A DNA stretch of 64,000 nucleotides from an uncultured Desulfobacterales bacterium (GTDB lineage: Bacteria; Desulfobacterota; Desulfobacteria; Desulfobacterales; B30-G6), in contig CAYTAQ010000001.1 in NCBI GenBank assembly GCA_964435695.1, positions 4,580 to 68,579 of the forward strand, in the 5' to 3' direction. The notes under the pieces were generated by a model that was not told the DNA's origin, made no database searches, and was given only the letters and a program-made list of their open reading frames with translations. Shown piece by piece: positions 1 to 57,080 of the stretch. Position numbers and translations under genes: made by a program. Each line of letters opens with the position of its first letter. The stretch's first letter is position 1.

Positions 1-320
1 GCATTGTCATAAAAAATGATGTCCAGATCCAGAATTCTGGGACCGAATCGAATTGGATCGGTTTTTCTTCCGGCACTTGCTTGAATCCTTTTTATTTCAT
101 TCAGCAAGGCCTGCGGACCCAACGATGTCGCGATCTTAGCAGCGGCATTGACAAACCAGTCCTGATCCCCATAGTCCACCGGACTTGTCCGGTAGAAACG
201 GGAGTGTTTTATCAATTTTGACTTGCCGGAAACACCAAGACCCTCAATGCCTGCTCGGCAGTTTTGAATTTTATCGCCGATATTCGAACCGACGGATATG
301 TAGGCGATATGTTTTTTCAA
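1..320 (-). CDS. folK: 2-amino-4-hydroxy-6-hydroxymethyldihydropteridine diphosphokinase (HPPK), N-terminal part; gene runs off the left edge
   Basis: Not in the ORF track. My minus-strand translation from TTG (320-318) reads LKKHIAYISVGSNIGDKIQNCRAGIEGL...YRTSPVDYGDQDWFVNAA...RFGPRILDLDIIFYDN. This matches the HPPK hallmarks GSNxGD and RxGPRxLDLDI. Confidence 0.8.
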   Translation of the reverse strand, partial: MKKHIAYISVGSNIGDKIQNCRAGIEGLGVSGKSKLIKHSRFYRTSPVDYGDQDWFVNAAAKIATSLGPQALLNEIKRIQASAGRKTDPIRFGPRILDLDIIFYDN

Positions 321-344
321 AAGTTATTTAGGATAACGCGAAAT

Positions 345-410
345 TAGCTGATAGCTGATAGGTCATAGCTCATAGGTCGTAACTCACAGCCCCTATCAGC
401 TATGATCTAT
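345..410. repeat. word-built palindromic intergenic element ('CTATCAGCTATGAGC' theme), copy 1
   Basis: AGCTGATAGG (353-362) pairs with CCTATCAGCT (392-401). It shares CTCATAGGTCGTAaCTCACAGC with the copy at 1334-1410. Confidence 0.8.
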
Positions 411-459
411 AAGCTTAAATAAACTCAGCCTAAAATCTTTGAACTTTCTGCAAGAATTC

Positions 460-1287
460 CTATGGCTTCCAGGCTTCTTCCCACAGCTCTCCTTCATAGA
501 TAACACGCGCATCTCCCTCCAGGAATACATCTGTAAATGACCTGTCGTTTTGTTTAAATGATATGCAAAGATGTTCTCCGCTGCGTGTCATGACCGTTAC
601 AGGGGGCACAAAACCGTTTTGCCTCGCCGCAATCAAAGCCGCAGCAACGGATCCGGTCCCACACGCCAATGTTTCATTTTCCACCCCGCGCTCATAGGTC
701 CGAATCGCCAGGGTGTTCTCGCCGATAACACGAATAAAATTAACATTTGTTCCCGACGGTGAAAACACCTCATGATACCGAACGGCCCTTCCAATTCTCA
801 CCGCATCCACCGCGTCGATATCTTCAGTCCAGACTACTACGTGCGGCACACCGGTATTCATGAAGTGATAATTCAGAAGATTGTTTTCCAATAAAAGCGT
901 GCAACCTTCCTTTAAATCCGTTGGATCGCTCATCTTTATCTTGACCCGGTTACCAACAATTTGTGCCGTGATAAGACCCACGTCGGTTTCAAAAGACACC
1001 TCCGGTCCTGCGATCCCGTTCAAAAAAGCAAACCGGCTGACACACCTCGCACCATTGCCGCACATTTCCGCACGGCTGCCGTCCGCATTATAGAATCGCC
1101 ACCTGAAATCCGCAATTTCGCTTTCTTCCACCAGAACAAAGCCGTCCGCACCCACCGACATTTTCCGTCTGCAAGCACCGACAATCATCTGATGAAGGAT
1201 TGTTTCCTGAACCACGTGGTCTCTGTTGTCGATAATGATAAAATCATTACCGCTCCCGCTCATTTTGTAGAAAGGAATGAAGTTCAT
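460..1287 (-). CDS. dapF: diaminopimelate epimerase
   Basis: ORF 460..1374 contains MNFIPFYKMSGSGNDFIIIDNR plus the two active-site Cys motifs MCGNGARC and ACGTGS. I moved the start to the ATG at 1287 because codons 1288-1374 read through an intergenic palindromic repeat. Confidence 0.93.
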   Translation of the reverse strand: MNFIPFYKMSGSGNDFIIIDNRDHVVQETILHQMIVGACRRKMSVGADGFVLVEESEIADFRWRFYNADGSRAEMCGNGARCVSRFAFLNGIAGPEVSFETDVGLITAQIVGNRVKIKMSDPTDLKEGCTLLLENNLLNYHFMNTGVPHVVVWTEDIDAVDAVRIGRAVRYHEVFSPSGTNVNFIRVIGENTLAIRTYERGVENETLACGTGSVAAALIAARQNGFVPPVTVMTRSGEHLCISFKQNDRSFTDVFLEGDARVIYEGELWEEAWKP

Positions 1288-1333
1288 TTTAGTTTCCCAA
1301 TCACAACCCAATACTGTGAACTTACAAAAAGAT

Positions 1334-1410
1334 GCAAGCTGATAACTCATAGGTCGTAGCTCACAGCAAACCACCCCACCTCCCTATGACCTATCAGCTA
1401 TGAGCTGAAA
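1334..1410. repeat. same element, copy 2 (direct orientation)
   Basis: AGCTGATAACTCATAGGTCGTAGCTCACAGC ... CCTATGACCTATCAGCTATGAGCTG. Confidence 0.8.
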
Positions 1411-1451
1411 ACGCACTCAGCCCTATCATGTTTCACCTCTCACGCCTATCT

Positions 1452-2711
1452 TTATTCTAAAAACGCCGCTATCGACTCCCCCCTTATTAGGTCTTCATAT
1501 TCCTGCCGCTGGTTGATGACATAATAGCGATCCTCCTTGACCATGACTTCAGGTACTTTGAGCCGCGAGCAGTAATTGGAGGACATGGTATATCCATAAG
1601 CACCTGCGCTCATCACTGCCAGGAGATCACCTTTTTGAACATCCTGCATAACGCGATCGGTTGCCAAAAAATCTCCGGACTCACAAATCGGTCCCACAAC
1701 GTCCGCTTGAATGTTATGTTGCGTATCCATTTGGATAACCGGTTGAATGGCATGAAAAGCGTGATATAGAGACGGGCGCATCAAGTCGTTCATGCCGGCA
1801 TCGGTAATGACGAACTCTTTGCCTGTCCCCCTTTTGCGGTAAAGCACCTTGGCGACCAGAATGCCGGCATTTCCGACGATGACCCTTCCTGGTTCAAGAA
1901 TCAATTTAAGATTTTTGGATTTTACGGTTTCAAGAATGGCTGTTGCATACTCGGTCGGCTCGGGCGGGGATTCTTGATTGTACGTAATACCCAGACCGCC
2001 GCCCATATCAATATATTGAATCTCAACATTGATGCGGCCCAGACGTTCGATCAAGGCCATGATATTTTTCAAGGCGTCTTCAAAAGGCCTGGCTTCTGAA
2101 ATTTGTGATCCGATATGACAATCGATCCCCTTAATGTCGACATTCTTCAGCGTATTCGCCATCTGGTAGGCTTTAAAAGCGGTTTCCGTATCAATGCCGA
2201 ATTTGTTCTTTTTCAATCCGGTTGAAATATAGGGATGCGTCTTCGGATCCACGTCCGGATTGACCCGGATGGCGATGGGCGCCTTTTTGTTTAAATGCGC
2301 CGCACGTTCATCGATCAAGGCAAGTTCTTCGAGAGACTCCACATTGAACATGAGAATTCCCTCACGCAACGCATAATCTATTTCATCCACACGTTTCCCA
2401 ACACCTGAGTAGACAATTTTTTCCGCAGAAAAACCGGCTTTCAATCCTCTGAAAAGCTCGCCGCCGGAAACAATATCCAACCCGCTGCCCATGCCGGCCA
2501 GCAGTTTTAAAATGGATAAATTTGAATTGGCTTTGGCAGAAAAACATACCAACCTGTCAAGCCCTTCAAATGCTTCGTTGAATATGAGAAAGTGGCGTTT
2601 TAGGGTCGCATGACTGTAAAGGTAAAACGGCGTGCCAATGTCTCCAGCAATCTCACGGATCGAAACACCTTCACAATACAACATGTCTTTTTCGTAATGG
2701 AAATGGTGCAT
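1452..2711 (-). CDS. lysA: diaminopimelate decarboxylase
   Basis: 419 aa with Orn/DAP/Arg decarboxylase family features: FSAKANSN (PLP-Lys region), GGGLGI and GPICESGD. Confidence 0.93.
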   Translation of the reverse strand: MHHFHYEKDMLYCEGVSIREIAGDIGTPFYLYSHATLKRHFLIFNEAFEGLDRLVCFSAKANSNLSILKLLAGMGSGLDIVSGGELFRGLKAGFSAEKIVYSGVGKRVDEIDYALREGILMFNVESLEELALIDERAAHLNKKAPIAIRVNPDVDPKTHPYISTGLKKNKFGIDTETAFKAYQMANTLKNVDIKGIDCHIGSQISEARPFEDALKNIMALIERLGRINVEIQYIDMGGGLGITYNQESPPEPTEYATAILETVKSKNLKLILEPGRVIVGNAGILVAKVLYRKRGTGKEFVITDAGMNDLMRPSLYHAFHAIQPVIQMDTQHNIQADVVGPICESGDFLATDRVMQDVQKGDLLAVMSAGAYGYTMSSNYCSRLKVPEVMVKEDRYYVINQRQEYEDLIRGESIAAFLE

Positions 2712-2725
2712 GACAATCTCCGCAA

Positions 2726-3163
2726 TTACTCATACATAAAGTCAACCATATTTGATTTTTCGCCCTCTTGATCGGTTTGATCATACAGTACCACTTGATA
2801 GGCGTACTGATATCCTTTTTCCAAAGCCTCCCGGTAATTCATATGCCTTGATTCGAACGGAATATTTGTAACAAAAACCAAACCCAACGGGCAATCCTTG
2901 CATGCTGCATCCCTTACGGACGTCTTGAAACGATATACCCTGGCCCCTGTGATATCATAAACCCTTCTTTTTGTGGATTCCGGAATGGTCCATTCAAGCG
3001 TCAGGTTGTCTCCCATGATCCGATAGTGAAGATCATTGACAACCGGTAGCCCGGGATAGCCGGGTGGAAGGGGCGGTCCTTTTTTGCCGCAGGCCGTAAA
3101 ACACCACATCAACATGAACAGCATACCGACAATCATGGAATGTCGGGTGATATTTTTCAGCAT
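2726..3163 (-). CDS. lipoprotein with LptM/LppL-type N-terminus and an extra C-terminal domain
   Basis: Signal peptide with lipobox FTAC followed by GKKGPPLPP. It lies immediately upstream of lysA-dapF, as small lipoprotein genes do in other proteobacteria. Confidence 0.6.
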   Translation of the reverse strand: MLKNITRHSMIVGMLFMLMWCFTACGKKGPPLPPGYPGLPVVNDLHYRIMGDNLTLEWTIPESTKRRVYDITGARVYRFKTSVRDAACKDCPLGLVFVTNIPFESRHMNYREALEKGYQYAYQVVLYDQTDQEGEKSNMVDFMYE

Positions 3164-3213
3164 GAGGTACCTTTAATACCGGTTTTCATCGGAATGTTAT
3201 TCTGACAAACGCT

Positions 3214-4614
3214 CTATTCGTTGCTGCTTTGGGTCAATGCATTCATATCTTTTTCTGCATTCGCGATGGCCTTTAAAACATTTTCTGTTGCCGTACCACC
3301 AAACGATTTTCGTCGATTGATCATCTGTTCGATGGATAGATGCTCAAAGACATCTTTCTCTATCAGAGACGAAAGAGACTTTAACTCCTTTAAAGAAAGT
3401 TCATGAAGTTCTTTTCCGGTGTTAGCGGCATACCCCACCGCCTTCCCAGCACAATTGTGGGCCTCTCGAAATGCCATGCCCCTATTAACGAGATAATCCG
3501 CCAAATCGGTGGCATTCAGAAAACCGGTTGTAGCACCACGTCTCATATTTTCGTTTTTTATATTGAGATGCGGAAGCATTTTTACATAAATGCCCAAACA
3601 GCTCGTCAAGGTATCCACCGTTCTGAACAACGGCAATTTATCTTCCTGCATGTCGCGGTTATATGCCAAGGGCAATGCCTTCATCAATGTTAATACACTG
3701 AACAAATCTCCAAAAACACTGCCTGCTTTACCACGGACCAATTCAGGGACATCCGGATTTTTTTTCTGCGGCATGATACTGCTCCCGGTGGCAAAAGCAT
3801 CCGGAATTTCGATGAAACCGAATTCAGATGTGGACCAGAGGATCAATTCTTCAGATAATCGACTCAAGTGAATCATACAAATACTGGCGGCTGAAAGGAA
3901 CTCCATGATAAAATCCCTGTCCGACACTGCATCGATACTGTTGGGTGATACCGCAGGAAACTTTAAAATTTCAGCGGTATAATGCCTGTCGATGGGATAG
4001 GTGGTACCGGCGAGTGCTGCGCACCCCAACGGCATTACGTTGATTCGCGCCAGCGCATCGCTAAAACGCTCCCCATCTCTTTTGAACATCTCATAGTATG
4101 CCATGAGATGGTGAGAAAAAAGGACCGGCTGTGCGTGCTGCAAATGGGTGTATCCGGGCATTATGACATCGATGTTTTTTGCAGACAGCTCGATGATAAC
4201 CCATTTTAATTCAGTCAACCCACGAGCCACGTTCGACACCGCGTCCCGTAGAAACATTCGCGCATCCAAAACCACCTGATCATTTCTGCTCCGTGCCGTA
4301 TGCAGTTTTTGGGCAACTTTTCCAACTTCCTGCAGCAGACGCGCTTCGATATGCATGTGGATATCCTCCAGGCTGTTGTCGAACTGAAATCCTCCGTGTT
4401 CTATCTCACGCTTGACGACACCCAGCCCCTGGATTAAGGTGGCAGCTTCATCTTCTGTAATGACACCCGCCCTGGCGAGTGTTTTACAATGCGCAATACT
4501 CCCTTCGATGTCATAAGGATAAAGCCTGCTGTCTATGTCGATGGAGGCGGTAAAAGCTTCTACGCCTCTATCCGTTCTTTCAGAAAATCTCCCGTCCCAC
4601 AATTTCTCCTGCAT
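3214..4614 (-). CDS. argH: argininosuccinate lyase
   Basis: 466 aa. N-terminus is MQEKLWDGRFSE, and the fumarate-lyase signature GSSIMPQKKNPD is present. Confidence 0.95.
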   Translation of the reverse strand: MQEKLWDGRFSERTDRGVEAFTASIDIDSRLYPYDIEGSIAHCKTLARAGVITEDEAATLIQGLGVVKREIEHGGFQFDNSLEDIHMHIEARLLQEVGKVAQKLHTARSRNDQVVLDARMFLRDAVSNVARGLTELKWVIIELSAKNIDVIMPGYTHLQHAQPVLFSHHLMAYYEMFKRDGERFSDALARINVMPLGCAALAGTTYPIDRHYTAEILKFPAVSPNSIDAVSDRDFIMEFLSAASICMIHLSRLSEELILWSTSEFGFIEIPDAFATGSSIMPQKKNPDVPELVRGKAGSVFGDLFSVLTLMKALPLAYNRDMQEDKLPLFRTVDTLTSCLGIYVKMLPHLNIKNENMRRGATTGFLNATDLADYLVNRGMAFREAHNCAGKAVGYAANTGKELHELSLKELKSLSSLIEKDVFEHLSIEQMINRRKSFGGTATENVLKAIANAEKDMNALTQSSNE

Positions 4615-4623
4615 CGCGAATCC

Positions 4624-5832
4624 TCACGCTCCTTTATGAGCCAGCTTTCTGATCCTCAGCCGCAGTGCATTTAGGCGGATAAACCCTTCAGCGTCTTTTT
4701 GGCTGTAGACAGTGTCATCTTCAAATGTTGCAAAATCCTCACGATAAAGCGAATCATCCGATTTTCTCCCGAGAACGATACAATTGCCCTTGTAAAGGGC
4801 TATCCGGACAGTGCCGTTCACACGCTTCTGGCTTTCATCGATCATGGTTTGCAGCAGCTCTCTTTCCGGAGAAAACCAAAAACCATTGTAGATAAGTTCC
4901 GCGTACTTCGGTATCAGCGAATCCCGCAAATGCATGACTTCTCGATCCATTGTAAGGGATTCCATCGTCATGTGGGCTATCCTCAGGATGGTACCGCCGG
5001 GCGTTTCGTAAACCCCTCTCGATTTCATTCCGACAAAGCGATTTTCGACGATATCAATCCGACCGATCCCATTTCTGCCGCCAAAACGGTTGAGCGTTTT
5101 GAGCATCGTTGCAGGGGACAACCGCTTCCCATTAATCGCAACCGGATCACCGTTTTCAAAAGAGATTTCAATCGTCTCTATCTGGTCCGGCGCTTCCATC
5201 GGTGATACAGTCATCGAAAAGATGTCTCCAGGAGCCTCGGCCCAAGGGTCTTCAAGAATACCGCCCTCATAACTCTTATGCAGCAAGTTGCCGTCGGTAC
5301 TGTAAGGTTTTTTATGGGTTGTTGGAACTTTAATGCTGTGCTTTTTAGCAAAATCCATCAAGGCTGTGCGCGAGTTGAGGCGCCATTCACGCCATGGTGC
5401 AATGATCTTTAGGTGGGGATTGAGCGCCAGATAACCGAGTTCGAACCTGACCTGATCGTTTCCTTTTCCCGTGGCGCCGTGACTGATGCCATCGGCTTCC
5501 TCTATCTCCGCAATCTCTACTTGACGCTTTGCAATCAGCGGACGCGCAAGGGATGTGCCCAATAAGTATTGCCCTTCATAAATGGCATTGGCCCTGAACG
5601 CGGGGAAAACATAATCTTTTACGAATTCCTCTGTCAAATCTTCGATATATACCTTTGATGCACCGGTTTTGAGTGCATTTTCTCTCACTTGTCCCAAATC
5701 GTCATCCTGCCCGACATCTGCTGAAAACGTAATCACATCGCACGCATAGGTTTCGATCAGCCACTTTAATATTACCGACGTATCGAGCCCGCCTGAATAC
5801 GCCAGGACTACTTTTTTAATGTTTATCGACAC
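4624..5832 (-). CDS. argG: argininosuccinate synthase
   Basis: 402 aa with the [12 protein letters not shown]-binding motif and [13 protein letters not shown]. Confidence 0.95.
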
Positions 5833-5882
5833 AGTTTTCTCCTTGTTGTGGTCTTTGGCGACGTGTATGGCAAAAAGAGCTC

Positions 5883-5973
5883 GAACCGCGAAGACGCCAA
5901 GATCGCCAAGATATTTTTATTATCGAATCAGAACGATTCGGAAAAAACTTCGCGTCCTTCGCGCCTTAGCGGT
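5883..5973. repeat. word-built palindrome (CGCGAAGACGCCAAG / CTTCGCGTCCTTCGCG theme) between argD and argG
   Basis: The arms are imperfect inverted repeats. An inner hairpin CGAATC-agaac-GATTCG lies at 5924-5940. Confidence 0.75.
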
Positions 5974-6013
5974 TAATTTTTTTTTAGGCCACAAAATCGC
6001 TAAAAACCTCCTG

Positions 6014-7213
6014 CTAATGCGCTTGGATTTCATCAAGCACTTCATCCAGGCAGCTTATCAGAGAATCAATTTGCTTTTCTGTAACGATCAGCGGCGGAAC
6101 AAACCGCAGGATGGTTTCCTGGATACAATTGATGAGAAAACCATGTTCCATGCACTTACGGACGATGATATCCCCTTTTTGATTCAATTTGATCCCCACC
6201 AGCAAACCGAGGCCCCGCACCTCTTCAATACACGCGTGGCGCTCTTTTAATTGAGTGAGTTGCTCTCTGAAATATTTCCCGACCCGCTCGCAATGGGCAA
6301 CCACTCCCTCCTGTTCAATGGTCCTGACAACTTCAAGCGCTGCAGCCGTTACAATCGGTGTCCCCCCGAATGTCGTAGCATGGGAGCCAGGACCGAATGC
6401 CTTGGCAATTTTTTCAACAGCCAGCATAGCGCCGATCGGCAAACCGTTTCCCAAAGCTTTTGCCAAGGTCATGATATCGGGCTGGATTTCGAAATGCTCA
6501 TATGCAAACAGCCTACCCGTTCGCCCCAGACCGGTCTGTATTTCGTCCAAAATAAACAGTGCCCCTGTTTCATTGCATAATTTTCGAACCGCTTTCATAT
6601 ACCCGGAAGACGGGCATCGAACACCGCCTTCGCCCTGAACAGGTTCTATCATTACCGCTGCTGTGGAAGGTCCGATCTTCTTTTCTAACGACGCCGCATC
6701 ATCAAAGGGTACAAATTCAAAACCAGCCAAAACCGGATCAAACCCCTTGCGAATCTTTTCCTGGCCTGTTGCGGAGAGAGCTGCCATGGTCCTGCCATGA
6801 AAGGACTGTTCCATCGCGATTATCTCATACCGATCCGCCTTTCCCTGATCCTTAAAATATTTCCTGGTCAGTTTTATCGCTGCTTCATTCGCTTCTGCAC
6901 CGCTGTTACAGAAAAAAACCCTGTCCGCAAAACTGTTCTCAACCAGCCATGATGCGAGCTCGGTTTGAGGTATCGTATAGTATAGGTTCGACACATGCCA
7001 AAGCGTTTCTGCCTGCTGAGACAGCGCCTTTGCAATTCTTGGATGTGCGTGGCCGAGATTGCACACCGCAATACCCGCCACAAAATCCAGATACGACCGG
7101 CCTTCTGAATCCCACACATTACATCCATTTCCTTTTACAATGACCAGCGGAAATCTTTGATATGTTGAGGCAATAACCGTATCCGCTGTTTTCATTGCGT
7201 CCGAACGCTTCAT
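6014..7213 (-). CDS. argD: acetylornithine aminotransferase (class III PLP aminotransferase)
   Basis: 399 aa with [26 protein letters not shown] and TFGG. The start overlaps the argB stop by 4 nt, and the gene sits in arg context. Confidence 0.88.
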
Positions 7214-8091
7214 CCGACAACCTCCGTTCCAATACCACTGTTGGTAAACAACTCAAGCAGCAAGGCATGCCGCCGCCTGCCATTAATAATCTGAACTTTT
7301 TCAACGCCGTTTTTCAGCGACTCGAGGGCACACTCGATTTTCGGTATCATGCCGCCTGAGATACGCTGGTCGCTCATCATTTCACCTGCCAGTCCTGAAT
7401 CGACGGAAGAAATCAAATTCCCTGATGCATCCAGCAAGCCGTCAACATCCGTAATCAGGATCAATCGGGCTGCCGAAAGCGCCATGGCCATTCTGCTGGC
7501 AACCAGATCGGCATTGATATTAAAGGTTTCACCGGAATCTCCCGCACCGACGGGTGCGATGATCGGGATAAATCCTTGTCGTGTGAGGGTGTGGATAATT
7601 TCAGGGTTGATGTGCGTCACTTCGCCCACCAGACCGGGATCGATGATTTCCGGCGGCTTATTTTCCTCCTGGTACACGATTTTCATCTTCCGTGCCCGGA
7701 TGAGCCCGCCGTCTTTGCCGGTCAGCCCCACCGCCTTACCGCCTTCACGATTAATCTGTGCTACAATTCCCTTGTTGACCTTGCCGCCCAGAACCATCTC
7801 CACCACATCCATGGTAGGCTCGTCTGTAAGACGCATTCCCTTCACAAAGGTGGAACATATCCCCATTTTTTCGAGCACCAGGTTTATCTGGGGACCCCCG
7901 CCGTGCACCACCACCGGATTCAAGCCGATAAATTTAAGCAAGGTAATATCCCTGGCGAAATCCTCTTTAAGCTGTTCATCGACCATGGCGTGACCGCCAT
8001 ATTTAACAACAATGGTCATACCGTAAAACCGTCGGATATAGGGCAGTGCTTCAATCAGAATATCAGCTACATTTGGAGTCCCCATATACAA
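7210..8091 (-). CDS. argB: acetylglutamate kinase
   Basis: 293 aa with [18 protein letters not shown] and NINAD motifs. Confidence 0.93.
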
Positions 8092-8110
8092 AACCTCAAC
8101 TTCTTTATGC

Positions 8111-8193
8111 TTTTAGGTGTTAGGTTTTAAGTTTTAAGTGTTTATAATTACATGCGATACCGTTTCCTAAAACCTAACACTTAAAACCTAAAG
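8111..8193. repeat. word-built palindrome (TTAGGTTTTAAG theme) between hslU and argB
   Basis: TTTTAGGTGTTAGGTTTTAAGTTTTAAGTG faces CCTAAAACCTAACACTTAAAACCTAAAG. Confidence 0.8.
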
Positions 8194-8194
8194 C

Positions 8195-9565
8195 TTATAG
8201 TATATATCGACTCAAATCCTCATCATCCTTGATGCCTTTGAGTTTTTCTTTTACAAAATCGGCGTTGACAACAATCCGCTTTTCTTTTTGATCCGGTGCA
8301 TCGAACAAAATATCTTCCAGCAGGCATTCCATGATCGTATGCAGCCGCCTTGCGCCGATGTTTTCAGTTCTGTTGTTAACTTCCTCTGCCGTTTTCGCGA
8401 TATCCCAAACCGCCTCATCTTCGAATTCTATTTCCACGCCCTCGGTTTTCAGTAACTCGATATACTGCAGCAACAGTGCGTTCTTGGGTTCGGTCAAGAT
8501 GCGGAAGAATTCATCAGAACCCAGCGAGCTGAGTTCCACCCGAATCGGAAATCGACCCTGAAGCTCCGGTATCAGATCAGAAGGCTTGACCGTATGGAAC
8601 GCACCTGAGCCAATAAACAGAATATGGTCTGTTTTGACGGGTCCGTACTTTGTCGTGACGGTAGAGCCTTCAACAATGGGAAGCAAGTCCCGCTGAACAC
8701 CCTCTCGAGAAACATCCGGACCACTCCCTCCGTTCTTTCCCGCAATCTTATCGATTTCATCAAGAAAAATAATACCGGACTGTTCAACTTTTTCGATGGC
8801 AAGATTAACGACCCTGTCCATATCCACCAGGTTTTGGGCTTCCTCGTCGATGAGTATTCCCAAGGCTTCTTTCACTTTCATCTTCCGGCGCTTTTTGTTC
8901 TTGGGCAGAATATTGCCGATCATGTCGCGGATGTTGATACCCATCTCCTCCATGCCGGCATTTGAAAAAATTTCTACCATGGGCATGGAGCGATCCGAGA
9001 TATCCAAGTCAATAAATCTGTCATCCAGCTTTCCACGACGGAGCAGATCCCTCAGCTTCTCACGTGTTGTGGATGACCCACCCTGAACCACATCGCCGCT
9101 CATATCCTCTTGTTCTGTTTGAGCGGGACTTCTGATGTCGGATTTCGGCAGGAGCAGATCAAGCATCCGCTCCTCGGCAATCCGCTCTGCTTTTTTTCTC
9201 ACGGCCGACTGTTCTATCAGCTTGACGCCGTTGACCGTCAACTCCACAAGATCACGAACCATTGATTCGACATCGCGACCGACATAACCCACTTCCGTAT
9301 ACTTGGATGCCTCTACTTTGTTGAAGGGAGAATCGGTCAATTTTGAGAGGCGCCTCGCAATTTCCGTCTTTCCGACACCGGTCGGACCGATCAGAATGAT
9401 GTTTTTCGGTTCAATCTCGTCACGAAATTCCTGCGGCACCTGCTGCCGACGCCACCGGTTCCGTAAGGCAATGGCAACGGATCGTTTGGCCTTGTCCTGA
9501 CCGATGATGTATTTGTCCAGAGCTGCTACAATCTCTGATGGTTTAAGGTCACTCATATCAAACAC
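8195..9565 (-). CDS. hslU: ATP-dependent protease ATPase subunit HslU
   Basis: 456 aa with Walker [15 protein letters not shown] and Walker [11 protein letters not shown]. The C-terminus ends in L, as is typical of HslU. Confidence 0.95.
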
Positions 9566-9640
9566 CTATATCGTGCTGAAGATCATCTCAAAATGAGTTG
9601 ATCCGTGTGTAATTTTCAATTTGCTGCGTGAAACTCTGAT

Positions 9641-9816
9641 AGGGTTCCAGGAGTCGAGGGTCCCAGGGTTCGAGTGAAAAAACAAAAAAACAATCATCAA
9701 AACACAAAATTATTCAATTTCTTTTTCGCCCTTTCGTGATAAATGGGTTCTTCACATCCCATCTATCACATGGTTATTCCTCACTTGAACCCTCGAATCC
9801 TTGAACCCTTGGATCC
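9641..9816. repeat. nested-hairpin element, family A, full copy (between hslV and hslU)
   Basis: Outer arms are AGGGTTCCAGGAGTCGAGGGTCCCAGGGTTCGAGTGAAAA and CTCACTTGAACCCTCGAATCCTTGAACCCTTGGATCC. The interior holds A-rich and ATCATCAAAACACAAA sequence, then TTTCTTTTTCG..CCTTTCGTGATAAATGGGTTCTTCACA..ATCTATCACA. Confidence 0.85.
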
Positions 9817-9850
9817 TTTTTTCAACTGATGTTTAAAAGAACCAACAAAA

Positions 9851-10384
9851 TCAAAATTCCTCTATTGTAATAGAATCATTGGTATAAACACACAGAGAAG
9901 CGGCAATGCGCATGGCTGCTTCCACAATTTGTCTGGCGGTCAAATCCGTGTGCCGCATCAGTGCCGTTGCAGCGGCCTGGGCCCCAACACCGCCGGATCC
10001 GATGCCGATGACGCCTTCATCGGGTTCGATGACATCGCCATTTCCCGATATGAGAAAAATGTTCTCGGCATCTATGGCGATCATGATCGCTTCCAATCGC
10101 CGTAAGTATTTATCGGTTCGCCAATCCCTTGCCAATTCCACTGCGGATCGGGTCAAATTCCCGTTATAGCGTTCCAGTTTGGATTCAAGCTTTTCCGATA
10201 GATGCAGCGCGTCGGCAGTAGCGCCTGCAAACCCGACCATAATTTTATCATGATATATCTTTCTGACTTTTTTTGCCGTGTGTTTGATGACATTATCATT
10301 GAGACTGACCTGTCCATCCCCGGCCAGTGCAACACGGCCTTTGTGTCGCACAGCCAAAATCGTGGTGCCGTGTATGTTGTTCAT
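9851..10384 (-). CDS. hslV: ATP-dependent protease subunit HslV
   Basis: 177 aa. The N-terminus HGTTILAVR carries the catalytic Thr, and GSGG is present. It is paired with hslU. Confidence 0.93.
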
Positions 10385-10397
10385 TGCTTATACCTTT

Positions 10398-10562
10398 GAG
10401 TAACGAGTTGCGAGTTACGGGTTACAGGTTGAATTTATCAAAACCGTCCTATCACAATCATCCTCTTTGTTTCTCATCATAAGGTTCATGTTCCCTCGTT
10501 GCATGCAAATAACAAGGTCTAACCCGGAACACGCAACCCGCAACCCGAAACTCGCAACCGGC
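10398..10562. repeat. word-built palindrome (CGCAACCCG theme) between xerC and hslV
   Basis: The left arm GAGTAACGAGTTGCGAGTTACGGGTTACAGGTT faces the right arm AACCCGGAACACGCAACCCGCAACCCGAAACTCGCAACCGG, with a ~90-nt centre. Confidence 0.8.
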
Positions 10563-11507: not shown

Positions 11508-11826
11508 CTTTTCGAGATTTTTTCTTTAATCTTGAAATCTTCCTGCGATAAATGGTTGCCATTTTTGAATTTTTCTCTCCGGTTGCCTTATTCCGTTTGA
11601 TCTTCAACGCCTTGATTTGGCGTTTAACCTCTCTTACCGTACCGGATCCCTTCTTTTTGACCTCTTCCTTAATATTCTTGGCCACCTTAATGGCGCTCAA
11701 AAGATCCGATTTGTTCATGCCATGAACGCCCGTGATCTCAGGGATCGCCAGCGCGACTTCTTTGAGTTCTTTGACCGTCATCTTATCGAGGGGTTTTTTA
11801 AACTCGCCTGTTTTATCTTCAGCCAT
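11500..11826 (-). CDS. small Lys-rich protein with a Rho-N/SAP-like helix-hairpin (MTVKELKEVA...)
   Basis: An AAAGGAGAT RBS lies 8 nt before the ATG at 11826. The stop overlaps the xerC start by 8 nt. The C-terminal half is K/R-rich. Function is unknown. Confidence 0.55.
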   Translation of the reverse strand: MAEDKTGEFKKPLDKMTVKELKEVALAIPEITGVHGMNKSDLLSAIKVAKNIKEEVKKKGSGTVREVKRQIKALKIKRNKATGEKNSKMATIYRRKISRLKKKSRKVA

Positions 11827-12029
11827 AACCGTAATATCTCCTTTCCCAATCTGTTGAAAAACGATAGCGGAAGCTCCAAGCCCCCGCATTTTTATCTGAT
11901 ATCAAGTGTTTAATATTTTTTGCAGACAGCAAACCAAATGCTGCGGCAAAATTTTTTTATTAAACAACTTTTTTAAATTGTGTCAACAGTTACTTTCGTT
12001 TATGGGTCATGTTTCCGTGAACCTGCGCT

Positions 12030-13528: not shown

Positions 13529-13632
13529 CTGATTTCCTATATTAAGTTTCCAAAACATCAATAATTTGCTGGGAGGCTAGAATGCCGGAAAGCTTGAAGG
13601 CAAATACCATAGATTCCCAGCCTCCCAGCTTC

Positions 13633-22056: not shown

Positions 22057-22470
22057 AATCACCTCTTTTAATTGCTTGTATGCCGCTTTAATATGGTTTT
22101 TTGCAAAATCAGTCAAATTAGCCATATGATTACCGGATATACTTACGATCATTTGAGGTGTTCGTCAATAATAGCAAAAAAAAAGATTTTTTGATCCGAC
22201 AGATCACCGGCGTCCTGTTTGTCCCTCTCACCGGGCATGCCATGAAAACCCGGTATTAAGCTTCACGGTTGTCTTGGGCGGCGTGCTCATTTTCTCAAGC
22301 AGCGGAGGAATCTTATCACAGTATCTGAAACCAAAGGTCTTGAAGACCGTGCTTTGGCTATTATGCGGCCTGCTGCTTCTTATGATTATTACGGTGGACA
22401 GTCAACGGTTGCGCCTCTGTCCTGGCGTCTATCGCCGCGGCTCAAATGGCCATCAGTTCAGGTCTGAAAA

Positions 22471-22508
22471 TCCTGTTTCTGTATTCTGCCTCCTGTATTC
22501 TGTATTCT
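22471..22508. repeat. TATTCTGT-word block, near-identical to 43451-43482
   Basis: TCCTGTTTCTGTATTCTGCCTCCTGTATTCTGTATTC compares with CAGTATTCTGTCTCCTGTATTCTGTATTCTTG. Confidence 0.75.
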
Positions 22509-22582
22509 TTTTGTTTTTTTTATAGTATGTCCAAATATCTCTGACTGGTCCAAAAGGACCCGGTTTTATTCAATGGAATAAT

Positions 22583-24346
22583 ATGAAAATACTTCTGATC
22601 TACCCCTATTTTCTGGATGAGCGGATTCATACATATGACATCAGCGTGCCCCCCATCGGCCTGTATTATGTAGGGGCCGTCCTCAAGGAAAACGGTTATG
22701 ACGTGGACATACTTAACTGGCATGCGATCCATTCATCACCCAAAATAATCAAAGAAACCCTGATCCGAATAAACCCGGATGTAATCGGATTCTCCATTTT
22801 ACATGCCAACCGATTTGGGGGAATCGAAATCGCCGGCATTGCCAAAGCACTGAACCCTGAGGTGAAAATCGTTTTCGGCGGCGTTGGCGCGACGTTTTTA
22901 TGGCGTCATTTTTTAACCCATTTTAACGCCATCGATTACATTGTGCTGGGGGAAGGAGAATACACTTTTTTAGCGCTTGTCAGATGCTTTGAGAAAAAAG
23001 ACGATACCGCCATAAAAAACATCAACGGGATTGCGTTCCGACAGCAAACCGGCCCGTATCAGACAAAACCGGCTGATGTCGTTCAGAATCTGGACCAACT
23101 TCCCATACCGGCAACGTATTTTCAGTATCAGCATGTTTCCTTTACCAGGGGATGCCCCGGGAACTGTACGTTTTGTGGTTCACCCCAGTTCTGGGGGCAT
23201 CGGGTCAGGACGCATTCACCGATCTATTTCGTCGATCAACTGGAATGCCTTTATCACAAAGGTATTCAGTCCTTTTATTTCTCAGACGATACGTTTACAT
23301 TCAAAAAAAAACATGTCCTGGCCATCTGCAAAGAAATCATTGCAAGAGGGCTGAATATCACCTGGGTTGCCATTTCCCGGGTGAACACGGTTGATGATGA
23401 GATCCTTGGATGGATGCGAAAAGCCGGATGTACACAAATCAGCTACGGTATTGAGAGCGGCTCGGAAAAGATCCGGCGCAAATTCAACAAGCGCATTCAA
23501 ACCGAACAGATAAAAAAAGCATTCGACAGCACCCGATCCTACGGCATTTTACCTCGGGCTTATTTCATATACGGAGCCCCCGGCGAATCCCGGGAAACGA
23601 TACAAGAAACCATCCGGCTGATCCATAATATCAAGCCATTGGGTGCGATTTTTTATATACTTGATATTTTTCCAGGAACGAAACTGTATGAGGACTTTAA
23701 GAAAAAGGAAAAGCTTTCAGATGACATATGGTTGAATCGGGTGGAAGATATTATGTATTTTGAGTCGGATCCCGCGCTCTCCAAAGAAGCAATCCTGGAA
23801 TTCGGAAGCCTATTAAGAAGCGATTTTCATAAAAGATTACCTGGATTCATTGAGGATATCGAACTGATTAGCGATAAAACATTTGATCGGTTTCATGCGG
23901 ATTTTTATTCGCGAATGGGGATGACCTTCACCCATGGAGATTATGCAAAAATAGATGCAATTGCGGAAAAAGAGATGATTGCGGAAAAACTTTTTCTAAA
24001 ATCCCTTTCCTATTTTCCCGATATTCGTGCATATCTGGGGCTTGGTATTCTTTATCAAAAACAAAGATCTTTTCAAAAATCCATGGAAATCATTGCCCAG
24101 GGGCTCTCACATTTCTCCGAAGGAATGGATTTGCGTATTTGTCAGGCTATTAATCATATGAATTTGAAAAATTTTGACGCCGCTCTGTCGATTTTTCTCG
24201 AGTATCAAACACTGCCGCATGTGATTTCCTATATCATTGAATGCTACAGGCAAATTGGGGATTTTGAGAACGCGAAAACATTTAGCGATAAAAAAGGATT
24301 CCAGGAGCCAAGAATCCAAGGAGTCGAGTTAAAAACCAAAAAATAA
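22583..24346 (+). CDS. B12-binding-domain radical SAM protein with C-terminal TPR-like region
   Basis: The N-terminal cobalamin-binding-type domain is followed by FTRGCPGNCTFC (CxxxCxxC). The last ~17 codons are derived from a repeat element. Confidence 0.85.
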   Translation: MKILLIYPYFLDERIHTYDISVPPIGLYYVGAVLKENGYDVDILNWHAIHSSPKIIKETLIRINPDVIGFSILHANRFGGIEIAGIAKALNPEVKIVFGGVGATFLWRHFLTHFNAIDYIVLGEGEYTFLALVRCFEKKDDTAIKNINGIAFRQQTGPYQTKPADVVQNLDQLPIPATYFQYQHVSFTRGCPGNCTFCGSPQFWGHRVRTHSPIYFVDQLECLYHKGIQSFYFSDDTFTFKKKHVLAICKEIIARGLNITWVAISRVNTVDDEILGWMRKAGCTQISYGIESGSEKIRRKFNKRIQTEQIKKAFDSTRSYGILPRAYFIYGAPGESRETIQETIRLIHNIKPLGAIFYILDIFPGTKLYEDFKKKEKLSDDIWLNRVEDIMYFESDPALSKEAILEFGSLLRSDFHKRLPGFIEDIELISDKTFDRFHADFYSRMGMTFTHGDYAKIDAIAEKEMIAEKLFLKSLSYFPDIRAYLGLGILYQKQRSFQKSMEIIAQGLSHFSEGMDLRICQAINHMNLKNFDAALSIFLEYQTLPHVISYIIECYRQIGDFENAKTFSDKKGFQEPRIQGVELKTKK

Positions 24347-24415
24347 AACCAATCACGAAAACACGAAATTTTTCTATTTCTTTTTCGTGATTTCGTGATA
24401 AAGGGTTCTTCACAA
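24296..24415. repeat. family A element, copy lacking the right outer arm; its left arm forms the 3' end of the radical SAM ORF
   Basis: GGATTCCAGGAGCCAAGAATCCAAGGAGTCGAGTTAAAAACCAAAAAATAAAACCAATCACGAAAACACGAAA...TTTCGTGATTTCGTGATAAAGGGTTCTTCACA aligns base-for-base with 9645-9770. Confidence 0.85.
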
Positions 24416-24449
24416 TTCTGAAAACGCCAAAGGCATACACAGTTACGCT

Positions 24450-25490: not shown

Positions 25491-25531
25491 AACATCGAAC
25501 GTCGAACATCCAACGTTCGATGTTCGATGTT
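25491..25531. repeat. palindrome (ATCGAACGTCGAACA theme) between convergent genes
   Basis: AACATCGAACGTCGAACAT-cc-AACGTTCGATGTTCGATGTT. It probably acts as a bidirectional terminator hairpin. Confidence 0.75.
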
Positions 25532-25603
25532 CATGGGTTTCACACAACTTTAGCGAAGTCCGTTTAATCCGTATCCTAAATCCCGCGCAACCATGATGCG
25601 TTT

Positions 25604-28328: not shown

Positions 28329-28392
28329 AACCACAAAGGCACAAAGCACACAAAGTTTTTTCTTTCTTTTAACCTTTGTGTCTTTGTGGTTG
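28329..28392. repeat. word-built palindrome (CACAAAGG theme) upstream of rfbD
   Basis: AACCACAAAGGCACAAAGCACACAAAG faces CCTTTGTGTCTTTGTGGTT. Confidence 0.8.
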
Positions 28393-30357: not shown

Positions 30358-30500
30358 CTACAGGTCGATCTCCAATCAAATTTCAATATTCTTAAAATTT
30401 GAAACGCTCAATTTAGGTAAAAAATGATTGACAAATACATCAATCATATATATTTAGAAAAATTTATGTGTGATTAACAACTGAAAAGGAGCTATCAACA

Positions 30501-34098: not shown

Positions 34099-34180
34099 CT
34101 GGATAATAGATGCTGGATGCTGGATACTGAATGCCGGTGTAAACAGAGTATCGAGTATCCAGCATCCAATATCCAGCATC
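34099..34180. repeat. word-built palindrome (CTGGATGCTGG theme) in the leuS/rng divergent region
   Basis: CTGGATAATAGATGCTGGATGCTGGATACTGAATGC faces GAGTATCGAGTATCCAGCATCCAATATCCAGCATC. Confidence 0.8.
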
Positions 34181-38668: not shown

Positions 38669-38744
38669 TTTAACTTAGGCCTAAATTGTCTGTTTTCAAA
38701 TTTTGAAACGCTCAACTCAGGTGGAAGCAAAGAAGGATTGATCA

Positions 38745-43219: not shown

Positions 43220-43482
43220 CAGAGAAGTCAGAAGACGGAACTCATAAATCAGAAGCCAGGAAACAGAAGACAGAACATCCAACATCCAACGCTTAACTCT
43301 CAACGTCCAAGAATGAAGTCGCTTCGCTCCACCATTTTATATCTTTGTATGCCACATGGAAGATCATAAATATAAAATCGATGGCATCCAATCTTGAAAG
43401 TCGAACGTTCGATGTTGGACATTGGACGTTTATCGATTCAGCGCCATATTCAGTATTCTGTCTCCTGTATTCTGTATTCTTG
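43220..43482. repeat. ~260-bp compound palindrome right after topA (CAGAAGAC, ATCCAAC and TATTCTGT words)
   Basis: The left side CAGAAGACGGAA..CAGAAGCCAGGAAACAGAAGACAGAACATCCAACATCCAACG faces the right side GAACGTTCGATGTTGGACATTGGACG...CAGTATTCTGTCTCCTGTATTCTGTATTCTTG. An inner hairpin is CCACCATTTTATAT / ATATAAAATCGATGG. Confidence 0.8.
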
Positions 43483-43822: not shown

Positions 43823-43903
43823 GAGGGACCAAGGGTTCACGGGAGAAAATAATACAGATCATTGTATACACTCGAATCCTTGACCCCTCGAACCCTAGAA
43901 TCC
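43823..43903. repeat. family A outer-arm-only element upstream of ilvB
   Basis: GAGGGACCAAGGGTTCACGGGAGAAAA ... CACTCGAATCCTTGACCCCTCGAACCCTAGAATCC. Confidence 0.75.
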
Positions 43904-43995
43904 TTCTGGATAAAAACTCAAGCTGCAGTTTTCATTTAGAGGCGGGTGAGTTTTCCCCATTCAACAAATACGGACATTATGAGAGAGGTTTTTAC

Positions 43996-47261: not shown

Positions 47262-47445
47262 AAGGATTCAAGGGGCCGAGGATTCAAGGATTCAAGTGAA
47301 AAAAACAGTCACCAAAACAAATAATATTGCCATTTCTTTTTCTTGTTTTTTGACCTTTCGTGTTTTGATGGCAAAGGAATTCATTAAATTCCGGCTATCA
47401 CAAACGCTTCACGTGGACCCTAGCCCCCTGGAATCCTTGAATCCT
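47262..47445. repeat. family A element, full copy (between ilvC and cimA)
   Basis: AAGGATTCAAGGGGCCGAGGATTCAAGGATTCAAGTGAAAAAAA ... ATTTCTTTTTC..CCTTTCGTGTTTTGATGG ... CTATCACA ... CTTCACGTGGACCCTAGCCCCCTGGAATCCTTGAATCC. Confidence 0.85.
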
Positions 47446-49088: not shown

Positions 49089-49239
49089 TTCAAACAGCTC
49101 GCTCAAAGGAAGGAACCAACGCCGCAGGACCCTCCCGGGGTATCCTGCGGCCTATGCTCGGTATTGTTTTATCCAGTAAGCATAGAATTCTTTAGTTGCT
49201 ATTAATTATGGATCATTACCAAATTAGTTGGTCCGAATT

Positions 49240-49393
49240 AAGGATTCGAGGGTTCGAGGGTTCGAGTGAAAAGCTTAAAAGTTACAAAGAATAAAAAGGG
49301 GAGATCGGAGTTGTCGAGAGAATGCTATAAGCGATGATCAAACCCCTGGAAAACAAACACTTGAATCCTGGGGTCCTGGACCCCTCGGACCCT
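49240..49393. repeat. family A outer arms with a different centre (between cimA and leuA)
   Basis: AAGGATTCGAGGGTTCGAGGGTTCGAGTGAAAAG ... CACTTGAATCCTGGGGTCCTGGACCCCTCGGACCC. Confidence 0.8.
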
Positions 49394-49454
49394 TTATCCC
49401 AATATGAATTGGGAGAAGAATGCTAATTATCAACAATTACATTGGAGAATAACA

Positions 49455-50993: not shown

Positions 50994-51090
50994 TCTGGCT
51001 ACTGGATGCTTGATGCCGGATTCTGGTCTCTGGATGATGGTAAAAAGAACGGTTTAGCGGTTGCTGGATCGATGAGTATTCTGGATTAGC
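50994..51090. repeat. CTGGATG-word block after leuA
   Basis: TAGTCTGGCTACTGGATGCTTGATGCCGGATTCTGGTCTCTGGATGATGG ... GCTGGATCGATGAGTATTCTGGATTAGC. The word theme is the same as at 34099-34180. Confidence 0.65.
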
Positions 51091-51295: not shown

Positions 51296-51595
51296 ATGAG
51301 CCTGAATTACGAATTCAGAAAAGCTGAAACCACCATTACACGTCTGACCCTTGAAGATCGAAAGGCTTTGTCATTGATCTGCAAAGATATCCAGCAAGCG
51401 GAAAATAACTTGAACAAAAAGGCCTCGGTGTTGTTAAGCAGATGCATCACGTCCTGTACCGGCATCTGCTGCCGCAATATTCGCCTGTTTGAAATTCCCA
51501 TCTTAATGCCCTTTAGAGAAATGCGGAGCAAAGCGACTTCCATCTTCAATGTTGGAAGTTGGACGTTGAATGTTGAACGTTCATTCTTTCCATGA
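51296..51595 (+). other. doubtful ORF / possible gene fragment (Cys-cluster CITSCTGICC)
   Basis: It has no RBS, and its last third is the translation of a palindromic repeat (51544-51586). It may be a remnant. Confidence 0.25.
51544..51586. repeat. GTTGGACGTTGAA-word palindrome
   Basis: CTTCAATGTTGGAAGTTGGACGTTGAATGTTGAACGTTCATTC. The same words occur at 43400-43430 and 25491-25531. Confidence 0.7.
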
Positions 51596-53827: not shown

Positions 53828-53953
53828 GAAAAAATAAAAAAACCAATAACGAAAATACGAAATTTGGAAAACACATTATGAACTAGATCTTTTTCGTGTT
53901 TTCGTCCTTTCGTGATTTCGTGATAAAGGGCTTCTTCACATATGATCTATCAC
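53828..53953. repeat. family A inner arms + core copy (upstream of the restriction gene)
   Basis: AAAAAATAAAAAAACCAATAACGAAAATACGAAA ... TTTCGTGTTTTCGTCCTTTCGTGATTTCGTGATAAAGGGCTTCTTCACATATGATCTATCACA. Confidence 0.85.
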
Positions 53954-54119
53954 AAAAACAGAATTAAAGACTCCCAGGCGTATTTTGCCATATTTGAGCT
54001 CCCTGCTCTGCTATTCACCGCCATCATCGGTTTTATCATAGAATTTTTAATTGAATTGCCTTTTATGCTGATTTGTATTCTCGACCATCATTTAGGAAGA
54101 AAAAAGAGGCCCATGAATC

Positions 54120-56432: not shown

Positions 56433-56855
56433 ATGGACCCAAAAGTTAAACATGCCATTGAAAAAGCCGTCAAAAGAGAAGCCCTGGCCAAGGCATTTAA
56501 AATAAAGCTTGTTGAACTCGATTCAGGTTTTTCTGCTGTTGAAATGATCTATGAGCCTGCGGTCATGAGCAATATCTACGACAGGGCCCACGGCGGATCC
56601 ATTTTTGCATTGATTGATGAGGCCTTTGAGACCGCCAGCCAGACCCACGGCACCATTGCCGTGGCATTGAATGTCAACGTGACCTATATTGCCAGTCCGG
56701 ATGCACCTGTAAGGCTTCGGGCCGAAGCCCGGGAGGTGAGCCGCACCAAAAAAACCGCCAGTTATGACATCAAGGTCGTTGACGAACACATGAAACTCAT
56801 CGCCACCTGCCAGGCATTGGCGTTTCGGACCGGAAAACCGATACCGTTTGTTTGA
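56433..56855 (+). CDS. PaaI/hotdog-fold thioesterase
   Basis: 140 aa with RAHGGSIFALIDEAF, typical of the PaaI/4HBT-III family. Confidence 0.75.
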   Translation: MDPKVKHAIEKAVKREALAKAFKIKLVELDSGFSAVEMIYEPAVMSNIYDRAHGGSIFALIDEAFETASQTHGTIAVALNVNVTYIASPDAPVRLRAEAREVSRTKKTASYDIKVVDEHMKLIATCQALAFRTGKPIPFV

Positions 56856-56868
56856 AAAACAGACTTTA

Positions 56869-56937
56869 ATCACGAAAACACGAAACACCAAACACCAAAC
56901 ACTCGACTAAAAATTAAATATTTCGTGTTTTCGTGAT
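56869..56937. repeat. family A inner-arm hairpin (perfect 17-bp inverted repeat), probable terminator of the thioesterase gene
   Basis: ATCACGAAAACACGAAA (56869-85) is the exact reverse complement of TTTCGTGTTTTCGTGAT (56921-37). A T-rich tract follows. Confidence 0.85.
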
Positions 56938-56944
56938 GTTTTTT

Positions 56945-57080
56945 ATTTTTTTCTCGTTCCCACGCTTACATGTTTATAAAAGGTGGCAGAGGCTTCCAGC
57001 CTCTGGAAACCAGCGGCAAGATGCCGCTGCCACCTTGCTTTTTTCTCGTTCCCACGCTCCTGCGTGGGAACGTTTTGCCC
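56945..57080. repeat. composite repeat: duplicated TTTTTTCTCGTTCCCACGCT and a GTTCCCACGC/GCGTGGGAAC hairpin flanking a GGTGGCAG...CTGCCACC hairpin
   Basis: A direct repeat lies at ~56948 and ~57041. Hairpins are GTTCCCACGCtcctGCGTGGGAAC and AGGTGGCAGAGGCTTCCAGCCTCTGG...GCTGCCACCT. A related hairpin, GCTCTCACGCGTGGGAGC, is at 51105-51122. Confidence 0.7.

Follow-up and report, generated by a model that had tools for sequence, protein, structure and literature searches.

Tandem-word palindromes in the gene spacers of a Desulfobacterales genome: probable families of foldback-type miniature mobile elements

Palindromes in the spacers of the folK-to-xerC cluster and beyond

The gene spacers of an uncultured Desulfobacterales bacterium are rich in imperfect palindromes whose arms consist of tandem, degenerate copies of a short word. 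These elements are described here for a 64-kb stretch of the genome (64,000 nt of contig CAYTAQ010000001.1, hereafter the window). The first 11.9 kb of the window hold folK, dapF, lysA, an open reading frame (ORF) of 145 aa with no family match, argH, argG, argD, argB, hslU, hslV and xerC. All eleven genes lie on one strand, the minus strand, in agreement with the first-pass annotation of this DNA, which had also reported one palindrome in every cluster gap of about 100 nt or more. An inverted repeat is indeed found in six out of six such gaps, and the positions agree; the word period is 7 in E1, E2, E4 and E6, 8 in E5 and 8-9 in E3 (Table 1). Among species-representative genomes the closest HslU is that of Desulfonema magnum (78%). 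The closest metagenomic HslU match (83%) is on a 3.5-kb contig, and the exact HslV product of the window has no database record.

The elements measure 40-265 nt, contain no ORF and make up about 3.6% of the window when the lengths of the listed parts are summed. Frequently an element abuts the upstream stop codon and stops just short of the next ribosome-binding site; others are 20-47 nt away from both neighbouring genes. The same design had been proposed for five further sites. Four of these (E10, E11, E12 and E13) conform, and the fifth, E17, proved to be a direct array, not a palindrome, that folds no better than shuffled sequence. Not on the earlier list are E7, E9, E14-E16, E18-E20 and a solo arm (Table 1). 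Reading through the elements adds spurious N-terminal extensions to ORFs, as had been suspected for dapF, rfbD and leuS and as protein profile matches bear out: the DapF match places the start at 1287, and the RmlD and LeuS matches begin at residues 24 and 71 of the rfbD and leuS ORFs, respectively. Gene callers therefore over-extend starts through such elements, a point of practical significance for annotation.

Table 1. Word-built elements and related units in the window
Element	Coordinates	Strand	Description	Details
E1	345..415		folK/dapF gap hairpin	heptamers of AGCTGAT/AGGTCAT type, the array reading AGCTGAT AGCTGAT AGGTCAT AGCTCAT; 24-nt arms, 88% complementary; DNA fold z = -4.1
E2	1334..1410		dapF/lysA gap hairpin	E1 word family; within spurious dapF 5' extension; z = -2.35
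E3	5880..5975		argD/argG gap hairpin	arms AACCGCGA AGACGCCA AGATCGCCA; word type related to E11; small inner hairpin at apex; z = -2.5
E4	8111..8193		hslU/argB gap hairpin	heptamers TTAGGTG/TTAAGTT, also present in Desulfonema magnum L001 and in L054; begins 1 nt from hslU stop codon
E5	9582..9843	+	full (a)-family miniature element, fills hslV/hslU gap	left terminus GATCATCTCAAAATGAGTTGAT; octamer arms 9641-9676 and 9781-9816, octamers AGGGTTCC AGGAGTCG AGGGTCCC AGGGTTCG; right terminus ends ...AAAAGAACC
(b) unit copy	9676..9785	+	nested in E5 loop	arms decayed; 86% over 71 nt to 24345-24414
E6	10398..10562		xerC/hslV gap hairpin	heptamers GAGTTAC/GGGTTAC, the array reading GAGTAAC GAGTTGC GAGTTAC GGGTTAC; 25-nt arms, 88%; ~100-nt loop; begins at base after xerC stop, ends 13 nt before hslV start; word seen as direct array in L021
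E7	13568..13629		palindrome GCTGGGAGGCTAGAA.../...TTCCCAGCCTCCCAGC	weak word structure; z = -3.75
solo arm, word family (d)	22470..22510	+	CTGTATT/CTCCTGTATTCTGTATTCT	without inverted partner; 97% to 43453-43481
E9	24335..24435	+	(b) unit copy	z = -4.8
E10	25491..25532		short-loop hairpin, (c) words AACATCG AACGTCG AACATCC	between convergent genes; words also in L042, L051, L054, L091; z = -6.2
E11	28329..28392		hairpin, octamers AACCACAA AGGCACAA AG	overlaps spurious rfbD (RmlD) ORF start; family found in 5 other loci; z = -6.0
E12	34099..34180		GCTGGAT-word hairpin	30-nt arms, 87%; within spurious leuS 5' extension; z = -5.4
E13	43220..43482		nested element	outer (d) arms 43250-43275, 43456-43480; inner (c) arms 43274-43310, 43387-43426; apex core at 43309-43376 (nhmmer E = 2e-8)
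E14	43830..43905	-	short (a)-like hairpin GGGTTCA.../...CTCGAATCCTTGACCCCTCGAACCC	95% to 49240-49260
E15	47262..47445	+	(a)-family element without left terminus	diverged (b) unit nested at 47296-47415
E16	49211..49398	+	(a)-family element, left terminus GATCATTACCAAATTAGTTGGT	different interior; ends 5 nt before leuA start
E17	50994..51090	+	direct array, (e)-type words (CTGGATG and similar)	z = -1.1, DNA fold z = -0.29
E18	51487..51581	-	half element	one (c)-word arm and apex core (E = 6e-5), no right arm
E19	53830..53965	+	(b) unit copy, extended arms	in divergent gap
E20	56855..56960	+	(b)-arm hairpin, perfect 17-nt arms ATCACGAAAACACGAAA	different loop; z = -5.5

How far do such arrays exceed chance? 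Aligning the gaps with one another under stringent, gapped settings recovered too few of the degenerate arms, and tests of periodicity and folding were therefore used. A scan for degenerate tandem runs of periods 5-12 finds 13 in the window, ten of them with period 7, against 0.16 in dinucleotide shuffles; the elements are thus set well apart from shuffled sequence. In a survey of 80 hslU-centred Desulfobacterales loci together with the window (1.21 Mb) there are 173 runs, 121 of period 7, where ~2 are expected per period. A test for enrichment in intergenic over genic DNA had been proposed, and the enrichment is strong: 140 of the 173 runs (81%) fall in the 18% of the sequence that is intergenic. 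Pairing is likewise in excess, with an inverted partner within 350 nt for 76 of 145 period-7/8 runs as opposed to 9 in control random regions of the same locus; a further direct partner accompanies only 15 of the 145. Folded as single-stranded DNA, 11 of 12 window elements tested give z values of -2.4 to -6.2.

Placement is biased as well. When gaps of at least 60 nt are counted, word runs are carried by 20% of co-directional gaps versus 3% of divergent ones (odds ratio 7, p = 3e-5), and an excess of same-strand over convergent gaps, 20% versus 10%, is also present (p = 0.025).

Families, insertions and changes in place

The elements fall into families, as blastn of the window gaps among themselves and alignment indicate. 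Six word families have 2-5 copies each within the 64 kb. A different word for each gap had been proposed, and it is correct that many sequences follow one design; however, E1 and E2 have a common word, as is visible in the table of the first-pass annotation itself, and words recur across the window (25491 and 43274; 22481 and 43453; 34099 and 50994). Octamer arms of the type GGGTTCGAG/GGATTCAAG occur four times. The (b) unit, of ~95 nt, has the consensus AAAAAAAAAAAnCAATCACGAAAACACGAAATT..TTTCGTGnTTTCGTGATAAAGGGnTTCTTCACA...ATCTATCACAAA, with CACGAAA arms and the core TTTCGTGATAAAGGGTTCTTCACA..ATCTATCACA; it is present five times in the window, always on the plus strand, and the loops of E5 and E15 harbour one copy each.

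The families extend to other genomes. In 161 loci (2.05 Mb; individual loci are given by L numbers), the (a) junction GGGTTCGAGTGAAA is present in 25, the CACGAAA arms of (b) in 9, AACATCGAACGTC words in 5 and CACAAAGGCACAAAG words in 6, and families (b), (c), (g) and (j) are each found in several. One family occupies six gaps within 19.5 kb of L046. The word repertoire of the Desulfobacterales sequences comprises at least 73 distinct heptamers, none dominant, this count being the only informative outcome of a single-linkage clustering that chained all words. At the apex of hairpins there is a core of ~55 nt (TTATGGAGTCGCTYCGCTCCGCTGATTTTATATAATTGGCAGAATTCCTTAAC), flanked by arms of at least five unrelated words; it yields 28 nhmmer matches in 22 loci, including 43309-43376 and 51487-51547 of the window. 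Of significance is that the complex, non-repetitive parts, i.e. termini, interiors, the 55-nt core and the 95-nt (b) unit, are identical between different genomes and between loci that are otherwise unrelated, and are found in either orientation.

Two observations on repeats in other loci may be added. A palindromic insert of ~33-60 nt, TCTCCGAGCTGTAGGCTCTA...GGAGCCGGARGCC, is nested within the apex core of CTAAAGTGA-type elements (L016 ~11500-11560, L094 ~300-345, L119 ~11500-11535) and is a further layer of very small insertions. Desulfonema magnum (L001, 1019-1291) has a 273-nt direct array of ~39 heptamers, GCAAATC/ACAAATC; no array of the window comes near this length.

Do these sequences insert? 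The comparisons draw on groups of related genomes represented in the retrieved loci. The length of the hslU-argB gap varies from 2 to > 470 nt, with different elements in different genomes. Six operon junctions in genomes that are 88-96% identical are each either 7-30 nt or 150-480 nt long; the short form is empty and the long form is filled with different elements. The comparison of syntenic spacers that the first-pass annotation had called for thus reveals orthologous gaps that are empty or hold other elements. The turnover of operon junctions in this clade is very rapid: one and the same junction measures 7 nt in one genome but more than 400 nt in a near relative. A systematic comparison of relatives gives 232 clean insertion polymorphisms, and at least ten filled/empty pairs show direct target duplications of 7-10 bp.

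The (a) family is one example. It has termini ATCATCTCCCAAAGAATTGG... and ...CCAAnTAATTTGGAGAAGAACC, subterminal octamer arrays and an interior of 110-165 nt, and its target duplications are A+T-rich and 8-10 bp long (AAATTTTAT, AAAAAAGAA, ATTTTAAA). The inverted termini ATCATCTCCCAAAGAATTGG.../...CCAANTAATTTGGAGAAGAACC are found in relatives and in E5 and E16 of the window. Both E5 and E16 can be aligned with the (a) termini, so that E5 in full spans 9582-9843 and fills the hslV-hslU gap; the inverted repeat at 9641-9816 that was originally noticed there is real, but it is only a part of this larger element. The termini of E5 align with copies in L015, L104, L130 and L134, which have 8-10-bp target duplications. 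Other families have terminal inverted repeats of their own (GGGTGTnAATCA, GTAACCATTCAGCCACAGAT) and target duplications of 7-9 bp (L133 GGTGACCA; L071 AGTTTACT; L051 AATTAAT; L096 GTTAGGAC; also AGGAAGGAC). In L046 a copy sits in the loop of an older hairpin with a CTCGTGT target duplication. Nested palindromes thus arise because elements insert into the loops of older hairpins.

Could the elements be repetitive extragenic palindromic (REP) sequences, or the hairpins built from them (REPINs), spread in single-stranded form by a REP-associated tyrosine transposase (RAYT) of the IS200/IS605 type? They resemble REPs in being abundant extragenic palindromes of transcribed spacers that are rare between divergent genes (3% of gaps). 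All five (b) units lie on one strand, and 10 out of 12 (a) copies point the same way as their flanking genes, which would also fit. Movement of the RAYT/IS200 type, however, yields neither target duplications nor terminal inverted repeats, and relatives show both. There is no conserved REP head motif, the arms being tandem 7-8-mers of many sequences, and no RAYT gene is present among the window ORFs scanned (0-58.6 kb). Nor do the elements match an Rfam family or contain a unit of the REP type or of bacterial interspersed mosaic elements (BIMEs), so that they are not ordinary copies of these known repeats. A REP-type origin is very improbable.

The arrays are altered in place as well. Small differences in length between the arrays of close relatives number 17, and in 8 of them the difference is an integral multiple of the period (binomial p = 0.0013). 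L117 has six octamers more than L122 in an otherwise identical sequence, and L046 and L119 differ by three heptamers. Orthologous arrays of close relatives thus differ by whole words, which is the local, stepwise evolution of words that the first-pass annotation had proposed to look for. A mirrored order of words between the two arms was also considered and rejected: arms paired in register have 0.75 identity, barely above the 0.71 reached when they are slid by one word, and they act as arrays and not as exact inverted copies.

Origin of the elements, and other features of the window

Is the hairpin itself under selection, as the first-pass annotation suggested? The elements would then be RNA hairpins of polycistronic transcripts that stabilise 3' ends, provide processing sites or act as attenuators, functions that have been put forward for REP/BIME sequences and for the short tandemly repeated repetitive (STRR) sequences of cyanobacteria. 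In co-directional gaps they follow a stop codon and precede the next ribosome-binding site, which is consistent with such a role; some hairpin is present in the syntenic hslU-argB gap of many genomes, and roles of this kind have been suggested in the literature (PMC2670836). Yet many close relatives have tight junctions of 7-30 nt at the same places. Folding energies give no advantage to the sense strand (44 co-directional gaps: sense 22, antisense 15, 7 ties, p = 0.23), elements with the apex core lie in either orientation relative to flanking genes, and the arms of nested copies are decayed. A scan of positions 1-12000 detects no terminator-like site (G+C-rich stem with T tract) and no promoter on any element. 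Rfam 15 has no match to the elements at gathering score and no covariation-supported family; when E-values up to 1 are admitted, a microRNA-precursor hairpin on E3, a chance hit, is the only match that overlaps an element. No evidence was found of selection on the RNA hairpin, and the proposal of such selection is not sustained; as the principal explanation it is quite improbable. Effects on mRNA stability, processing or coupling are plausible as by-products, because the elements sit in polycistronic spacers. The data are better accounted for by the spread of several mobile families, combined with slippage in the arms, than by selection for structure.

The elements are best interpreted as several families of foldback-type miniature mobile elements that accumulate in the untranslated spacers of this Desulfobacterales genome, with a probability of roughly 0.68. 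They have the traits of MITEs (transposable elements of the miniature, inverted-repeat type), being small (< ~600 bp), non-coding and intergenic, with terminal inverted repeats and many copies. It had been argued that an architecture conserved over unlike words is not what the spread of one mobile sequence would produce. This is right in that several families are involved; mobility as such is not excluded thereby, as the recurrence of families, the terminal repeats and the target duplications testify.

How might the elements have come about? The basic unit is a pair of inverted arrays of a word that is 7 or 8 nt long, in some cases 9-10 nt, to which many members add outer terminal inverted repeats and a family-specific interior. 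Entry is by insertion with a 7-10-bp target duplication, as demonstrated in relatives and for the family to which 9582-9843 belongs. The landing site often lies between a stop codon and the ribosome-binding site that follows it, or within the loop of a hairpin already in place, the latter giving nested palindromes. After insertion the arrays gain or lose whole words, probably through replication slippage, and this together with the divergence of families could produce many words in one architecture. The word arrays might constitute multimeric binding sites for a putative transposase-like enzyme. Elements occur about seven times more often in co-directional than in divergent, promoter-bearing gaps, which may result from purifying selection against insertion into promoters. 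Bare hairpins (E1-E4, E6, E10-E12) may represent reduced or simple members of the same kind.

Several points weigh against a mobile origin. No available relative is closer than 83% in HslU, and the empty-site comparisons consequently all come from other genomes; the window's own copies have no recognisable target duplication, and the bare word hairpins just named have no recognisable termini. No transposase domain, Y1/RAYT included, is found among the window ORFs scanned (0-58.6 kb), and 2 Mb of loci contain no longer element with the same ends and no parent insertion sequence. The counts in the survey are not independent, as the loci all surround a single conserved gene cluster and some of the genomes are related. 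Three of the ‘empty’ sites already hold one word (L055 ATGAACGTC, L055 AAATTGAA and L147 AAGAATTCAAG), as could likewise be the case if arrays grow in place or if excision leaves a footprint, and there are direct arrays that are unpaired (E17, L001 and L021).

The last two points fit an origin in place, with no mobility. A heptamer of the spacer would expand by slippage, and template switching or fold-back would copy the array in inverted form. The whole-word differences in length between close relatives and the near-equal pairing of arms slid by one word are consistent with this, and slippage-prone heptamers have been hypothesized in published work (PMC4692102). Against it stand the identical complex, non-repetitive parts at unrelated loci, in both orientations and different genomes, and the whole elements that are flanked by direct target duplications. 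An origin in place is unlikely.

Candidates for an autonomous element were also followed up. Long-range pairs of arms proved to be separate elements flanking housekeeping genes, pairs of (a) sequences 1.3-1.5 kb apart are chance matches inside genes, and large insertions between relatives are not insertion sequences.

Might the mobile families all belong to one superfamily of bacterial ‘foldback’ elements? The 7-10-nt word arrays would then be lineage-specific, iteron-like recognition sequences for a putative enzyme, and the apex core TTATGGAGTCGCTYCGCTCC...TATAATTGGCAGAATTCC would be common to families with unrelated words. The idea is tentative and rather doubtful. If it is true, it could explain the origin of the heptamer excess in cyanobacteria, Xanthomonas, Beggiatoaceae and these Desulfobacterales, and the similar scale of word length and target duplication (7-10 bp) would be a clue to the mechanism.

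Other features of the window deserve mention in their own right. A 24-nt motif, CGGAAYGTTMTTCTGACAAACGCT, occurs twice, at 3190-3213 between argH and the 145-aa ORF and at 62293-62316 upstream of a plus-strand gene at 62356; it is found in none of 160 related loci and could be an operator or a small regulatory site. The motif AAATTTGAAACGCTCAAYTYAGGT is located upstream of a small gene resembling that of ribosomal protein S20 and upstream of secF (30395-30418 and 38699-38722), and is also present in L039, L061 and L126. Directly upstream of the intact leuA (49404-50993), a leuA/citramalate-synthase-like gene is split into two ORFs (47469-48317 and 48423-49088), one with an HMGL-like domain and the other with LeuA_dimer; it may be a pseudogene or reflect a frameshift. 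A short palindromic repeat that is not word-built, CTCGTTCCCACGC...GCGTGGGAACG, is present at 56953-56965, 57045-57072 and 51105-51125, with matches in ~17 other loci. Between convergent genes at 56980-57036 there is an ordinary palindrome, also not word-built, with 27-nt arms, which may be a bidirectional terminator. The long gap that holds E13 and E14 also has, at 43620-43778, a small hydrophobic ORF of 31 codons followed by a strong hairpin (43734-43778) flanked by A/T runs. A gene for an AspBHI-N/Mrr-type restriction endonuclease (54120-55316) is immediately downstream of a (b) unit, and a cold-shock protein gene (61602-61924) has a leader that gives a sub-threshold match to the Rfam cspA thermoregulator (33 bits versus a gathering score of 78).

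Comparison with known repeat systems

Literature searches gave no description of such elements in Desulfobacterales. An excess of heptameric repeats is known from some bacteria. Filamentous cyanobacteria have STRR heptamers that fold into hairpins, in the hupS-hupL spacer and at other sites, and a role in transcript stability or translational coupling has been suggested (PMC2670836). The window elements share with them the head-to-tail 7-nt units, the enrichment in intergenic and intra-operon spacers and the capacity to form hairpins. They differ in phylum and in words, in the presence of many word families in one genome, and in having terminal repeats, target duplications and conserved interiors, which are absent from the STRR description. 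Elhai et al. reportedly observed in 2008 that STRR sequences are nested with other tiny repeats.

Xanthomonas GGGAATC arrays are ~90% intergenic, mostly in co-directional and rarely in divergent gaps; at 70-75 loci two arrays face each other as inverted repeats, and length varies between related strains. They have been reported without a link to mobile elements and are discussed as quadruplex-forming (PMC4692102). The likeness in intergenic location, co-directional bias, inverted pairs and length variation is close. Xanthomonas, however, has one G-rich word, whereas here there are dozens, mostly not G-rich, together with evidence of insertion. TAACTGA direct repeats are known from marine Beggiatoaceae, some Cyanobacteria and Bacteroidetes; 169 sets are direct and one is inverted, they are located just upstream of start codons, and a translational role has been proposed (PMC4679880). 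Here too a bacterium that is large or filamentous has numerous heptamer arrays in its intergenic DNA, and horizontal spread is suspected, but the arrays represent a single word, in direct repeats, placed just upstream of start codons.

A REP is a single imperfect palindrome of 20-40 nt that has a conserved head; RAYTs mobilize it, and the target is not duplicated (PMC3116915). REP, BIME and REPIN sequences resemble the window elements as abundant extragenic palindromes in transcribed spacers that are mosaic or nested and are targets for further insertions (PMC3116915). The difference is that the arms here are tandem words and that insertions duplicate 7-10 bp. Bacterial MITEs are small and non-coding, have terminal inverted repeats and target duplications, and can be folded into long hairpins (PMC4853749). 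These properties are shared by the elements described here, the target duplications being those seen in relatives, with Correia elements among the bacterial examples; tandem-word arms, on the other hand, are unusual among the bacterial MITEs that have been described. Foldback elements have long inverted arms made of short tandem repeats in variable number. They are eukaryotic and have no sequence relationship to the window elements.

The heptamer-hairpin architecture is therefore already known. What differs here is the number of word families per genome, their embedding in miniature transposable elements and their nesting. Heptameric tandem repeats and miniature mobile elements are thereby connected, and the Desulfobacterales spacers offer a testable system for the question of why heptamer repeats are over-represented in some bacteria.

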